DNA of 64,000 nucleotides, taken from the NCBI RefSeq assembly GCF_017348835.2, contig NZ_CP071375.1, one strand, 5' to 3'. Of the stretch, positions 25,632-31,705 are shown one piece after another. The notes beneath the pieces were generated by a model. That model was not told the origin of the DNA. It made no database searches and saw only the letters and a program-made list of their open reading frames with translations. Numbering within the stretch: position 1 is the first letter of the stretch; every line of letters begins with the position of its first letter. The position numbers and the translations under genes were made by a program. The stretch comes from Escherichia coli. GTDB taxonomy: Bacteria > Pseudomonadota > Gammaproteobacteria > Enterobacterales > Enterobacteriaceae.

Positions 25632-26419
25632 ATTCGCTTCGGGCTTGGTGTATTCTCTCCAGCTAACGCTTTTTCATCAGCGGCTATCTGTTGTGATTCT
25701 TTATCTGCCTGAGCCTGTGCCAGTGTTGCTGCAGCGTTTTGTTGGGCTACCAGAAGTGAGCGGATTTGCAGTAACTGATTTGTCTGTGCACTGGCAAGCT
25801 GGTTTGCCGCCTGAATAGCTTCCATTTGCCCTTGTGCGCCGCTTGCCTGAGTTTGTAATTCGGCAAGATTATCAGCATCGCTCTGCAGGGTGTTCTGCTG
25901 CTCGTCAATTACCTTAAATACTGCGTCATTGGCCTTTTTACGCGCCCCTGAGCTATTCTGTTCAGCTTCACGCAGTGCACTAATTTCAGACGCGGTACAT
26001 TCAACATTGCTGTTAAAGCAAGACGATGTCCTGTAGTAGTTAACATCCTGATAGCGTTTCAGGTACGCATCGAGACTCCCGGCCTGATTCTTGTAGTAAT
26101 TAAGGGTATCCTGCACCTGCAACAATTTATTAATTGTTGAATTTGCCTGGTCCCAGATATAGGCCGCAGGAGCTACGGTGTTCTGCAGCATGTTTTCATA
26201 CTGCTGCAGCTGCGTCTGGTACTGCTGGATTTGTTTAGTCACAGCCTGAACGTTGTTAACTGCGCTGATTGTGGTCTGAACCACATTAGTGCCATCAATA
26301 ACGGGAATTCCGGCCTTCACCGGTAATGCCATGACGGACGCCACGAAAGGAACTATTAAAGCTTTTTTAGCGGCTAAAATCCCTCTTTGTGATGAAACCA
26401 CTCGGAACTTTAAATTCAT
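25625..26419 (-). CDS. TrbJ/VirB5-like type IV secretion protein
   Basis: 264-aa ORF with signal peptide and Gln/Ala-rich coiled-coil-type sequence; GAGGTGA Shine-Dalgarno 5 nt upstream of the ATG at 26419. Confidence 0.6.
   Translation of the reverse strand: MNLKFRVVSSQRGILAAKKALIVPFVASVMALPVKAGIPVIDGTNVVQTTISAVNNVQAVTKQIQQYQTQLQQYENMLQNTVAPAAYIWDQANSTINKLLQVQDTLNYYKNQAGSLDAYLKRYQDVNYYRTSSCFNSNVECTASEISALREAEQNSSGARKKANDAVFKVIDEQQNTLQSDADNLAELQTQASGAQGQMEAIQAANQLASAQTNQLLQIRSLLVAQQNAAATLAQAQADKESQQIAADEKALAGENTPSPKRIW
26366..26378. promoter_or_regulatory. 13-bp palindrome TTTAGCGGCTAAA (KorB operator-like), copy 1, inside the 5' end of the trbJ-like gene
   Basis: Exact perfect palindrome; matches the IncP KorB operator consensus TTTAGCSGCTAAA as recalled. 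Confidence 0.5.
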
Positions 26420-26499
26420 TTGCTCACCTCTTTTTCAACAGATTAGTAATATTTAACACTCTGTCTGTTAACAGACGCAGGTATATAGGAAACCACACA

Positions 26500-26865
26500 T
26501 TATTTATCCAAGATTTTATCCATAATGTTCCTTAGTTCTTGCCGAGTTGATTCTATTTTCGCAAGCAAGGTTCTTATCAGTGTGGGTGAAAAATCAACTG
26601 TTCGAGGATCATTTGCGAGCCATAATTTAAGTAATCCGCCAAGTCTTCCAAGATCAGCATTTACTCGGCTAAGTTCATTAACCTGTTTTATATCTACGAT
26701 AGAATCAACCTGATAACCCATTGCAACTCTACGAACAAAACAGGCAACACTTAATCCAGATGCTTCTGCATTTTCTTGGATGAGAATTTTTTCTTCGGGT
26801 AAACAATAAACTTTTATTGGCGTACTATTTTTTCTAGTCTGAGTAACTTTCATATAGCTCTCCAT
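26500..26865 (-). CDS. MobC-like relaxosome accessory protein (ribbon-helix-helix-type)
   Basis: 121-aa ORF; the segment VYCLPEEKILIQENAEASGLSVACFVRRVAMG and the following DLGRLGGLL fit the MobC-family pattern recalled from memory. Confidence 0.45.
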   Translation of the reverse strand: MESYMKVTQTRKNSTPIKVYCLPEEKILIQENAEASGLSVACFVRRVAMGYQVDSIVDIKQVNELSRVNADLGRLGGLLKLWLANDPRTVDFSPTLIRTLLAKIESTRQELRNIMDKILDK

Positions 26866-27252
26866 ACAGGCGGTAGCCTGGCAGCCTCGCAGAGCAGGAC
26901 GCCCTTGAGCCGCGATGCGGCGAATAGGGAGTGGTAAAGTTGGAACACCGTAGCGGTGGGCCCACTTTACATGTCCTGCCCTGCAGTTGCCGTTGTATAT
27001 CTGTGCACGACAATGTGTATTTCAGTGTACAGGATGTGTTTTCTTAGCGTATTAATATAGGATTACTGGAGTAAATTTCTGCAGCAAATGTGTTTTTTGC
27101 AAGGAAACTATATTTCTCCCTTTTGAAAATGACCTTTAGTAGTTATAAATGGACGTCCACCAACTGTATTTATGTTTCGATATATTGTAAGAAGTCTTTC
27201 ATTTTCCGATGCACTTTTTTACTTACCTTGTCAGAGCATGTGCATTGCAGAT

Positions 27253-27265
27253 TTTAGCGGCTAAA
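27253..27265. promoter_or_regulatory. 13-bp palindrome TTTAGCGGCTAAA (KorB operator-like), copy 2, in the mobC-like/repC-like intergenic region
   Basis: Exact repeat of the same palindrome, with identical A/T flanks (ATTTTAGCGGCTAAAAT). Confidence 0.5.
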
Positions 27266-27502
27266 ATCTGCCTCCCTATGCCTAAAGCTAGGGGCGTACC
27301 TCATATGTCATAAAATCTACCTCAAGTGTCAATATACCAAACGTGTAAGTAATCTCTTCTTCTGGCGTACAACCATCGGTCTTTGGCCGATTCTAGATTT
27401 GAAAGCGCCTGCTCAGGCAGGTGATTTCAAAGCCTGAATATACTGGTTGATCCTGAATAACCTGCAAAGGAGTTAAAAAATCAGGCCTCTGTAGCACACT
27501 GG

Positions 27503-27565
27503 CGGGCCGTTACAGCACATCACCGGGCCGTAACGACACGTTACCGGGCCGTTGTAGCTCGTTTT
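27503..27565. repeat. Three tandem ~21-bp direct repeats (iteron-like) with core CGGGCCGTT; candidate oriV
   Basis: CGGGCCGTTACAGCACATCAC / CGGGCCGTTACGACACGTTAC / CGGGCCGTTGTAGCTCG..., cores at 27503, 27524 and 27545, overlapping the 3' end of the repC-like gene. Confidence 0.55.
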
Positions 27566-30431: not shown

Positions 30432-30856
30432 AATAGTATATCCACGAGCTATTATGGTGGCAGTTTAAGTCTTAATACCATCCACTTTATTGAATTATAA
30501 CCAGCCACTTACGAAGGTTTTTCGCGATTACCCTGCTTCAAATTGATGATTTTGAAAATACAGTATTATAGTTTATTGTTTGTAGCGCAGCTGTAAGCGT
30601 TATGCAAAATGGATCACAGTGATACGACCTCACCAGTAAATCACTGAAGCCGATCTGTAATGACATAGAACGAATTGGTTTTATGGTTATGCAATGGCTC
30701 ATCCCCTTACTTGTCCCTGACCATAAAAAGCATTCGCTTTCCTGAAAGCAAGTCTAAGCCAAGGGGCGTTTACAGTTGTCTTATCTTGACTCATTAGGTA
30801 CTGGCTTAATGATTAGAATCATGTCGGTGGCATTTAGGTCCAAATATGCCCAAAAT

Positions 30857-30869
30857 TTTAGCAGCTAAA
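30857..30869. promoter_or_regulatory. 13-bp palindrome TTTAGCAGCTAAA (KorB operator-like variant), copy 3
   Basis: Same arms with a central A; lies in the non-coding region downstream of the membrane-protein gene. Confidence 0.4.
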
Positions 30870-31008
30870 ATTCGTCTTCTCATGTAGGGTCAAGAAGCTT
30901 ATGACTAAACCTATTGATTATGTGAATTACCTTGTGAGTAATACTCGTAGGATGGAATCTTCCAAAACTCTGACAATTCACTCTGAATGCATGGTAACAA
31001 AGAACAGT

Positions 31009-31638
31009 TTAAACCATGGTCTGTTCAGCGTTAAATTTCTCAAGATAGACTTCCATTTCGCGAGTCCACCTAGGGGTAGGTACCGAGGTGATCATTAGCC
31101 AAGGAAACCACCATACAAGCATGAAGAGTAACATAAGCGGTGCGATCATTTCGGCCGAAGAATGAGAAACTATATACATAATGAATAATATTAGTAGAAC
31201 TGTGTTTACAATCTGACCTACCAGAAAAAGACGCCAGCGAAAACAATGCCATTTCCTGTTGAACACAATCCGTCCATCCCGTTCTTCGAGCCAGTTACGC
31301 CACGGCTTGAGATAACCAGCCCGCAACCCATAACGATCACACATTATTACAGCCAAATCCTGCAGCCGATAATTATACAAGCCTGTGAGCCGATAAAGGC
31401 TGCGCTGACGAAGCTCACGCTTTGCCAGACGGACCGCATTTTTATTCAAATATGGCTGTGTCAGCATTTGCTCTAGCCGGCGCTTCCTAAGATTGAGTAG
31501 TCCACGAAATACACTTCCAGATTCAGCATTAATTACTCTGTGACGAACTACACCGAGTGCAATATAGATACACAGCAATAGCCAGCCGGTCTTAGGGTAT
31601 TGATTCATCCATTGTATAATTACAGACAACTCAGGCAC
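31009..31638 (-). CDS. Hypothetical membrane protein (one N-terminal and two C-terminal TM segments, basic cytoplasmic middle)
   Basis: 209-aa ORF with a GTG start; hydrophobic segments WLLLCIYIALGVV, LFLVGQIVNTVLLILFIMYIV and MIAPLMLLFMLVWWFPWLMI; no recognised family. Confidence 0.45.
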   Translation of the reverse strand: MPELSVIIQWMNQYPKTGWLLLCIYIALGVVRHRVINAESGSVFRGLLNLRKRRLEQMLTQPYLNKNAVRLAKRELRQRSLYRLTGLYNYRLQDLAVIMCDRYGLRAGYLKPWRNWLEERDGRIVFNRKWHCFRWRLFLVGQIVNTVLLILFIMYIVSHSSAEMIAPLMLLFMLVWWFPWLMITSVPTPRWTREMEVYLEKFNAEQTMV

Positions 31639-31692
31639 TTTTATTTTTCCTTTTTATGCAATCCAGATAAAACCAGTAAAGATTCAGTAAAT

Positions 31693-31705
31693 TTTAGCGG
31701 CTAAA
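31693..31705. promoter_or_regulatory. 13-bp palindrome TTTAGCGGCTAAA (KorB operator-like), copy 4, about 55 bp upstream of the membrane-protein gene start
   Basis: Exact repeat; positioned in the putative promoter of the 31009-31638 gene. Confidence 0.5.

Follow-up and report, generated by a model that had tools for sequence, protein, structure and literature searches.

The window analysed here, a 64-kb stretch of Escherichia coli DNA, contains a 9.4-kb remnant of an integrative mobilizable element (IME) of the PIME1/GIsul2 family in the 3' end of guaA. The island has a tyrosine integrase beside the guaA 3' end with the att core GAGTGGGA (core from PMC9376610), divergent alpA and luxR-family regulators, repA, trbJ-trbL without a full type IV secretion system, and an IncP-like oriT with a nic site and an inverted repeat. 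Its traJ, oriT, trbJ and trbL are IncP derived. The second att site for excision is absent, as the window holds one att core. Since the left end has been replaced by IS3 and the distal att site lost, the island copy is a remnant that cannot excise. The features of the island are listed below, with OB denoting the KorB operator.

22602-23858, plus strand: IS3-family element truncating the island, whose shared sequence begins at about 23859
24046-25446, minus strand: trbL (VirB6-like), from the RefSeq annotation of the identical PE164 sequence; product 55% identical to TrbL of IncP plasmid L003
25625-26419, minus strand: trbJ (VirB5-like), from the RefSeq annotation of the identical PE164 sequence
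26366-26378: OB site 1, TTTAGCGGCTAAA, within the trbJ coding sequence (41-53 nt past its ATG); codes for L-A-A-K of the signal peptide
26500-26865 (RefSeq start 26853), minus strand: traJ, oriT-binding relaxosome protein; scores 159.8 bits with NCBIfam NF010451 (cut-off 134)
26934-26985: oriT core, with a 17-nt inverted repeat (26934-26950 and 26954-26970) and an IncP-like nic region, CTTTACATGTCCTG/CCC
27178-27187: TrbA-operator-like decamer CGATATATTG, one mismatch, 75 bp from site 2; a lead only
27247-27271 (core 27253-27265): OB site 2, palindromic without mismatch over 25 bp, lying between oriT and the iteron/oriV-like region
27503-27558: three iteron-like repeats with 21-bp spacing, probable oriV
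27541-28314, minus strand: conserved hypothetical gene, 253-257 aa, matching no NCBIfam family
28331-29146, minus strand: RepA-family helicase
29152-29403, minus strand: alpA-like HTH regulator
29460-30431, plus strand: LuxR-family regulator, the PIME1 hallmark gene
30857-30869: OB site 3, with a central A (TTTAGCAGCTAAA), in the gap that separates the 3' ends of luxR and the 209-aa gene
31009-31638, minus strand: 209-aa membrane protein flanked by OB sites 3 and 4, with no significant Pfam or NCBIfam match
31693-31705: OB site 4, between int (57 bp from its stop codon) and the 209-aa gene (55 bp upstream of its start)
31762-32952, minus strand: tyrosine integrase (int)
33261-33268: att core, reverse complement of GAGTGGGA, at the guaA 3' end; sole copy in the window

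PIME1EcRHB23-C07, PIME1MmNCTC12028 and GIsul2 are integrated at the same guaA 3' end, and PIME1/GIsul2 elements have int, alpA, luxR, repA, traJ, trbJ and trbL in common with the island as well as an IncP-like nic region with an adjoining 17-nt inverted repeat. A 17-bp inverted repeat has been reported for E. coli PIME1, and oriV has been placed downstream of repA (bioRxiv 10.64898/2026.01.12.698999). The relatives carry defence-system cargo, whereas the island copy, truncated by IS3, no longer has its cargo or the distal att site. The island and the enterobacterial IncP plasmid L003 have identical nic cores, while R751 has CTTCACACATCCTGCCC, and the island TrbJ is 86% identical to TrbJ of mcr-1-type IncP plasmids and 57% identical to that of R751.

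The palindrome TTTAGC(G/A)GCTAAA (TTTAGCRGCTAAA) had been noticed in the initial annotation at 26366, 27253, 30857 and 31693, and a scan of the 64-kb window finds exact matches at these four positions (26366-26378, 27253-27265, 30857-30869 with a central A, and 31693-31705) and at no other. An excess beyond chance had been claimed for four copies in 9 kb; the excess is borne out by 100 dinucleotide-preserving shuffles, which gave no match (expected number 0), but the copies in fact span 5.3 kb. No additional copy with up to two mismatches occurs in the window, against about three predicted by chance, and the sites are thus either perfect or absent. The A/T-flanked form said to be invariable is less uniform than was supposed. 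The full 17-bp form ATTTTAGCSGCTAAAAT is present at three sites and not at site 1, which has a left flank of TT where the 17-bp form has AT, whereas a 15-bp palindrome is present at all four. As for the genes that the palindromes bracket, sites 3 and 4 do flank the gene for the 209-aa membrane protein, and sites 1 and 2 flank traJ and oriT rather than the mobC-like region originally proposed.

The KorB operator consensus to which the palindrome had been compared is correct, as KorB of RK2 recognises TTTAGCCGCTAAA, a site that occurs 12 times on that plasmid (PMC2848598). Three island sites match the OB consensus TTTAGC(G/C)GCTAAA exactly, and the central A of site 3 falls at the position that the consensus leaves degenerate. 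The 13-bp palindrome of IncP-1 plasmids (RK2/RP4, R751 and mcr-1-type IncP plasmids) is identical to that of the island; 13 copies are found on L003 and 10 on R751. The extended 15/17-bp form seen in the island is typical of L003, where 10 of the 13 sites are 15-mers, while R751 has the 15-mer form at two of nine sites in its first 50 kb. OB densities resemble each other, at one per 2.3 kb in the island and one per 3.7 kb on L003. Unlike IncP-1 plasmids, the island lacks korB/incC in cis and operators for KorA and KorC, has a central-A variant and a conserved luxR/int site, and is a chromosomally integrated element that is not self-transmissible.

Placement, too, is partly shared with the plasmids. 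The 5' end of trbJ carries an OB on both IncP plasmids and the elements, with one at the position of site 1 on L003, R751, GIsul2 and the PIME1 loci that carry trbJ. Some relatives have a further OB just 3' of traJ, as the plasmids do. At site 2, a 26-nt stretch matches the OB preceding trbB on L003 with 96% identity, and an OB stands at the equivalent place in the related loci L005, L006, L007, L028 and L029. The central-A variant of site 3 is kept in L002, L005 and L028, and none was present on the two IncP plasmids examined. IncP-1 OBs hold defined positions relative to the promoters they regulate, often together with an operator for KorA or TrbA. In the window, a consensus promoter scan gave 29 hits against 20 expected, with nothing convincing beside the sites.

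Conservation was assessed over 475 kb of sequence covering 25 PIME1 loci of Gamma-, Beta- and Alphaproteobacteria. These contain 56 perfect OBs against 0.03 expected, no one-mismatch OB against 1.0 expected, and 18 two-mismatch OBs against 16.8 expected, which is the chance level. Every OB lies inside an element, and about 190 kb of chromosomal flank from the window and related loci contains none. In an alignment of 18 trbJ genes (mean nucleotide identity 68%), the OB ranks first in conservation among 780 windows of 13 nt although the signal-peptide region in which it lies is poorly conserved, and it varies solely at the centre base that is degenerate in the consensus. On both of these counts the OB behaves as an evolutionary unit. 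An OB between convergent luxR and int is kept in 14 distant loci whose LuxR proteins are 49-55% identical, 23-52 bp past the end of the luxR tblastn match. An OB adjoining the int 3' end is conserved across PIME1. The luxR/int OB is the best-conserved PIME-specific OB; it lies between two gene 3' ends, away from promoters, and has no counterpart on the plasmids examined. GIsul2, which belongs to another subfamily, has the trbJ OB only, and no luxR is annotated in the 25-kb GIsul2 stretch that was analysed.

IncP-1 operators usually accompany a korB-incC operon on the same replicon, and the island has none. A tblastn search (E <= 1e-3) with KorB, IncC, KorA and TrbA from two IncP plasmids found no match in the window or in 24 related loci, in keeping with the initial annotation, which had recognised no cognate KorB/ParB gene. 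No island protein resembles any of the four, and neither LuxR nor AlpA is similar to KorA or TrbA. The other suggestion, loss of the regulator together with the truncated distal portion, is not supported: untruncated relatives, searched to 10 kb either side of the core, are likewise without KorB, IncC, KorA and TrbA. Among the operators searched (KorA, KorB, KorC and TrbA), perfect island copies were found for KorB alone; the patterns that detect KorA and KorC operators on the plasmids find none in the island. KorA is the usual partner of KorB in long-range silencing on the plasmids. L003-type korB was found on plasmids only, among the matches listed from E. coli complete genomes. Of the 5426 such genomes, 123 had the island and 63 the IncP plasmid; about 1.4 overlaps would be expected by chance, and no strain with both was present among the 60 matches listed for each search.

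The reading that best accommodates these features is that the four palindromes are genuine IncP-1-type KorB operators on a korB-less PIME1/GIsul2-family IME and are used in trans by the KorB of a helper plasmid, which we consider probable from operator sequence, placement and conservation. Regulation by a co-resident IncP plasmid, one of the possibilities raised at the outset, is supported by the IncP-1-inducible nature of the family, its IncP-derived genes and the conservation of the sites in the absence of a KorB gene. The IncP-1 plasmids pB10 and pKJK5, of two subgroups, induce PIME1 excision, and the report of this names no inducer and nowhere in its text mentions KorB or operators (bioRxiv 10.64898/2026.01.12.698999). 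KorB is a ParB-family CTP-dependent clamp that loads at OB and slides over kilobases. Most likely, helper KorB loads at the island sites, and the OBs are probably the means by which the element plugs into the helper plasmid. When an IncP-1-type helper is in the cell, its KorB clamp would load at the island OBs and, by analogy with its role on plasmids, could silence or block nearby units of the IME. The candidate targets are the trbJ-(K)-L unit for site 1, just inside trbJ; a promoter region between oriV and oriT for site 2, where TrbA may take part; and, for sites 3 and 4, the accessory gene of the membrane protein together with the int/luxR 3' boundary. With IncC, KorB might also provide a centromere for the excised, replicating circle, which would compete with the helper for KorB. 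Either outcome would place the IncP-derived functions of the element under the central control of the helper. Binding may thus lead to silencing, to partition hijack or incompatibility, or to sensing of the helper. Simple repression does not explain induction, since KorB is known as a repressor and the helper induces excision. Other points against this reading are the position of the best-conserved PIME-specific site between two gene 3' ends and not at a promoter, the lack of convincing promoters beside the sites, the missing KorA operator, the central A of site 3, the inability of this copy to excise and, as weak evidence, the lack of a strain with both island and IncP korB plasmid among the E. 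coli matches listed.

The sites could act purely as mimics of a centromere, in which case these parS-like sequences would let helper IncC-KorB segregate the excised circle and be titrated from the plasmid while transcription is unaffected. We regard this as possible but doubtful. There is a direct precedent in SGI1 and IncC, where SGI1 hijacks the ParB of its helper via parS mimics (Muranyi et al. 2024, PMC10954446). Like PIME1, SGI1 is an IME that has sites for the ParB-family protein of the helper without a ParB of its own and replicates after helper-induced excision, and element replication harms the helper in both SGI1 and PIME1Mm with pB10. The helper family and the motif differ, and KorB, unlike the ParB targeted by SGI1, is also a global long-range silencer, so that more outcomes are possible. 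The luxR/int site, away from any promoter, suits a centromere, as do the signs of segregation defects in a repA-oriV mini-replicon and the drop in pB10 abundance only if PIME (PIME1Mm) excises and replicates (bioRxiv 10.64898/2026.01.12.698999). However, partition is less critical for an excised PIME present in about eight copies (bioRxiv 10.64898/2026.01.12.698999), KorB at site 1 within trbJ and at site 4, 55 bp upstream of a gene, should affect transcription, and site 2 is similar to the control region that precedes trbB.

A further proposal concerns the effect of binding and not whether KorB binds. KorB may be the plasmid-borne signal that switches on excision and replication, directly or through LuxR or AlpA, although we think this rather unlikely. 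By one route, KorB clamps between convergent luxR and int would stop read-through or antisense interference; by another, a regulator of the element would capture KorB clamps, as KorA and TrbA do on the plasmid. The amplified operators might then titrate KorB and depress the helper. Induction by two different IncP-1 subgroups, with the inducer still to be named, is compatible with such a signal; the OB is identical across IncP subgroups and PIME1 elements, and KorB alone among the four regulators searched has perfect operator copies in the island. The most conserved PIME-specific OB adjoins luxR and int, both of which are required for PIME1 excision (bioRxiv 10.64898/2026.01.12.698999). Against this, no activating role is known for KorB, LuxR and AlpA are unlike the clamp-capturing KorA and TrbA, GIsul2 carries the trbJ OB alone, and a candidate antisense promoter over site 3 has no counterpart, by eye, at the luxR-side OB of the distant loci L010 and L018.

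LuxR-type HTH proteins typically bind palindromes, and an OB closely follows luxR in nearly all distant PIME1 elements, suggesting that a protein of the element itself, such as the LuxR-family regulator, could bind with KorB specificity and might compete with helper KorB. This is improbable given that no element protein resembles KorB, that GIsul2 keeps its trbJ OB with no luxR annotated, and that KorB is the protein known to bind exactly this sequence. It is about as improbable that the palindromes are functionless relics, inherited from an IncP-1 ancestor along with its traJ and trbJ segments. Site 1 and, in some relatives, the traJ-3' sites are indeed at plasmid OB positions, and DNA homology to plasmid trbJ stops exactly at the OB, but relics should include decaying copies, of which there are none beside the 56 perfect ones; the OB ranks first in trbJ conservation although its signal-peptide region is poorly conserved; and sites without a plasmid counterpart recur in different lineages. 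Transcription terminators or RNA hairpins, which the palindromic form and the position of three sites at gene ends might suggest, can be rejected with little hesitation, as the hairpins are weak (-2.7 to -4.6 kcal/mol) except at site 2, no site is followed by a U tract, a terminator scan flagged none, one site is within a coding sequence, and the bases do not depart from those of a known protein operator.

Operators for helper KorB would matter beyond this island. There are more than a thousand PIME/GIsul2 elements in Pseudomonadota, with cargo that includes resistance and anti-phage genes, and they rely on IncP-1 plasmids, a major vehicle for the spread of drug resistance. The preprint of 2026 that described them leaves open how PIMEs sense their helper and why helper copy number falls, and conserved OBs on korB-less elements offer a concrete molecular link for both. 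If helper KorB does act on them, sliding-clamp silencing by KorB extends to targets outside the plasmid, and PIME1 would be the second independent case, after SGI1 and IncC, of an IME that hijacks a helper ParB. Should sensing also prove true, a ParB-family clamp would be a trans inducer, with the parasite eavesdropping on the central control circuit of its host plasmid. AcaCD-binding sites on SGI1 and MGI elements recruit a helper-encoded regulator that times the IME life cycle. They are cis sites for a helper regulator as OBs would be, but AcaCD activates, while KorB represses and acts in partition, and the induction logic would have to differ. No prior report of OBs on these elements was found among the papers searched or read; Harmer et al. 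2017 (GIsul2), Lavigne et al. 2005 (IncP island) or Balzer et al. 1992 (RP4 OB map) may mention such sites.

Mcr-1-type IncP plasmids are likely the cognate helper of the E. coli elements, because of the common nic core, the close TrbJ and the same extended operator form. With such a helper, it would be understandable that the E. coli element is induced by pB10 and pKJK5 but not mobilised by them. In locus L029, the box aligned to the TrbA-like decamer near site 2 is CGATATACCG, which is identical to the box upstream of trbB on L003.

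An exact-match search of the window found the palindrome TTTAGCRGCTAAA four times, as the initial annotation had reported, with starts at 26366 (site 1), 27253 (site 2), 30857 (site 3, with a central A) and 31693 (site 4). No copy occurs in any of 100 dinucleotide-preserving shuffles of the window, and a search allowing up to two mismatches returned only the four exact copies, with about 3 expected by chance. The palindrome extends to 15 bp at all four sites and to 17 bp at three of them, and at site 2 the symmetry is perfect over 25 bp. The same annotation called the palindrome similar to the KorB operator (OB) and saw no cognate ParB/KorB gene in the window. 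No KorB homologue was indeed found in the window, and the operator assignment holds as a sequence match to the IncP KorB operator, from which binding itself is predicted. The KorB target of RK2 is TTTAGCCGCTAAA, present in 12 copies on that plasmid (PMC2848598), and a direct search counted 13 operators on the mcr-1-type enterobacterial IncP plasmid NZ_MF136778 (L003) and 10 on the IncP plasmid R751.

The window is E. coli chromosomal sequence, 100% identical to strain PE164, and all four palindromes lie within an island that adjoins the 3' end of guaA. The gene set and insertion site of the island match those of the GIsul2 family (PMC9376610; PMC5704250) and, more precisely, of the PIME1 subfamily of integrative mobilizable elements (IMEs) described in a 2026 preprint (10.64898/2026.01.12.698999).

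Features of the island, in order leftward from guaA
31762-32952, minus strand: tyrosine integrase (int), the first island gene
leftward of the integrase: 209-aa membrane protein
plus strand: LuxR-family gene, divergent from the next gene
alpA-like gene
leftward of the alpA/luxR pair: RepA-family helicase, then a conserved hypothetical gene
leftward of these two genes: oriV-like iteron set, then oriT
traJ, trbJ and trbL
22602-23858: IS3-family element, interrupting the island at about 23859

Distally, the island has been replaced by the IS3-family element, and the cut falls inside a higA-like gene. Since the window has a single att core GAGTGGGA (33261-33268, at the guaA end), the island is a remnant and excision should no longer be possible. 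Three iteron-like repeats (CGGGCCGT...) with 21-bp spacing are found at 27503-27558, at the 3' end of a 257-aa ORF, and are probably the oriV of the island.

Related loci were fetched by means of the LuxR-family hallmark protein, giving 22 from Gamma-, Beta- and Alphaproteobacteria and, with two further E. coli variants added, a set of 25 loci (475 kb). Every locus whose sequence reaches guaA is inserted next to it, and the related loci contain the same core parts as far as each sequence extends. Perfect OBs number 56 in the 25 loci against 0.03 expected, whereas one-mismatch OBs are absent (1.0 expected) and two-mismatch OBs are at chance level (18 against 16.8 expected). Every OB is inside an element, and none occurs in about 190 kb of chromosomal flank. 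This pattern of conservation points to purifying selection that acts on the DNA as such, and it argues against the view that the OBs are decaying relics of an IncP ancestor.

Two OB positions recur within the family. The first is at the 5' end of trbJ, and the second is in the short spacer that separates luxR from int, two convergent genes. When 18 trbJ genes with a mean nucleotide identity of 68% were aligned by codon, the OB ranked first in conservation among 780 windows of 13 nt; it lies in the signal-peptide region, and the only base to vary is the central one, at which the consensus is degenerate. In elements with a LuxR just 49-55% identical to that of the island, the spacer OB is found 23-52 bp past the end of the luxR tblastn match. 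When accessory genes are present between luxR and int, there is usually one OB on either side of the insert. The insert flanked in this way is the 209-aa gene in the window and in three related loci (L002, L005 and L028), while in the second E. coli PIME1 variant (L029) the insert at the same OB-bracketed position includes an EexN-family entry-exclusion lipoprotein (12579-12812). Locus L006 has the 209-aa gene but only the int-side OB. L025 is the one full-length locus in which no OB was found, and it shows no traJ, trbJ or trbL either.

On both plasmids, L003 and R751, an OB lies within trbJ, 14-29 nt from the 5' end of the gene, and another immediately 3' of traJ. Site 1, which follows closely on the start of the island trbJ operon, is the counterpart of the plasmid trbJ OB; site 4 precedes the 209-aa gene by 55 bp. 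GIsul2 of A. baumannii has kept the trbJ OB alone. The extended 15/17-bp form of the island OBs is, by its sequence, typical of L003 and not of R751, the 15-mer form accounting for 10 of the 13 OBs on L003 and 2 of the 9 in the first 50 kb of R751. Site 2 is similar to the control region that precedes trbB; the 26 nt around it are 96% identical to the OB at that position in L003. A TrbA-operator-like decamer (CGATATATTG, 1 mismatch) is located at 27178-27187, 75 bp from site 2, and the aligned box of L029 (about 8800) reads CGATATACCG, exactly as does the box that precedes trbB in L003 (12704-12713). The assignment of the box near site 2 as a TrbA operator is suggestive only; the region may be a promoter under KorB plus TrbA control that faces oriT and traJ.

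Homologues of KorB, IncC, KorA and TrbA were absent from the window and from all related loci, and no island protein resembles any of the four. The island also contains no perfect KorA operators or KorC-type operators, although the same patterns find both on both plasmids. The OBs, identical in sequence to a well-characterised operator, are under selection, and the protein that binds this operator has no gene on the element. The PIME1 family depends on IncP-1 helpers, which encode KorB, and helper KorB probably acts in trans at the island OBs. KorB loads as a CTP clamp on plasmids (PMC11790492; 10.64898/2026.05.27.728120), and helper-encoded KorB would load at the island OBs in the same way.

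Three consequences, which do not exclude one another, can be considered. The most economical is that the IncP-derived and accessory genes of the element would be silenced in step with the helper regulon, a co-repression to which we give somewhat less than an even chance. The spacer OB between luxR and int is not at a promoter and rather resembles a site for loading, or a centromere. Together with the drop in pB10 abundance reported upon excision and replication of the Morganella PIME1 (10.64898/2026.01.12.698999), this position fits hijacking of the partition system of the helper, similar to the scheme of SGI1 (PMC10954446); partition hijack or incompatibility is conceivable, if rather unlikely. 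Less likely still, the OBs may serve as a sensor of the helper, which demands that a repressor become an inducer, and no conserved sequence feature that provides this was found.

The IncP-1 plasmids pB10 and pKJK5 induce PIME1 excision, and the E. coli PIME1 is induced yet not mobilised by them; the inducer is described as "under investigation" in the same preprint, whose text does not contain the words KorB or operator (10.64898/2026.01.12.698999). The island TrbJ shares 86% identity with its counterpart on mcr-1-type IncP plasmids of Enterobacterales, 57% with that of R751 and 59% with that of pKJK5, and the nic core of the island, CTTTACATGTCCTGCCC, is that of L003, while R751 has CTTCACACATCCTGCCC. 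From these similarities, the cognate helper of the E. coli island is likely to be an mcr-1-type IncP plasmid, which may account for the failure of pB10 and pKJK5 to mobilise the E. coli PIME1 that they induce. Among 5426 complete E. coli genomes, island-type cores are present in 123 and L003-type korB in 63, the former always chromosomal and the latter always plasmid-borne among the matches listed, and no strain name is shared between the two sets of 60 listed matches, with about 1.4 overlaps expected by chance.

Neither the element family nor the KorB operator is new. The literature searched, in which older papers are partly covered, does not mention KorB-less operators conserved on IMEs; as a strategy, cis sites on an IME for a helper regulator or ParB are known already.

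Several further observations concern the surroundings of the operators. The island trbJ (25698-26379) has 85% DNA homology to trbJ of L003 (4160-4841) that reaches precisely as far as the outer OB edge, and OBs also stand on both sides of the luxR-int insert, which is variable. The palindrome, itself invariant, may be a breakpoint for recombination between modules. A perfect palindrome, CTGTCTGTTAACAGACAG, read by eye at about 26440-26460 in the 80-bp traJ-trbJ gap, may be an operator of the trbJ promoter. A small ORF between trbJ and trbL (25440-25631) occupies the position of trbK (entry exclusion) of IncP plasmids; it is annotated in relatives by RefSeq as a 57-aa hypothetical protein and has no similarity to TrbK of L003 by tblastn. 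Intact relatives carry defence-type cargo left of trbL (L002, 2160-8106; L028, 1-1665; L029, 861-5665), consisting of a HigA-like antitoxin plus a protein of 1776 aa that contains a reverse-transcriptase domain in L002 and an ABC-three-component system in L028 and L029. Finally, RefSeq lists pdeF (19722-21965) of the PE164 sequence, which is identical here, as a pseudogene that contains an internal stop, contrary to the mechanical ORF list, which gives an unbroken 747-aa frame.
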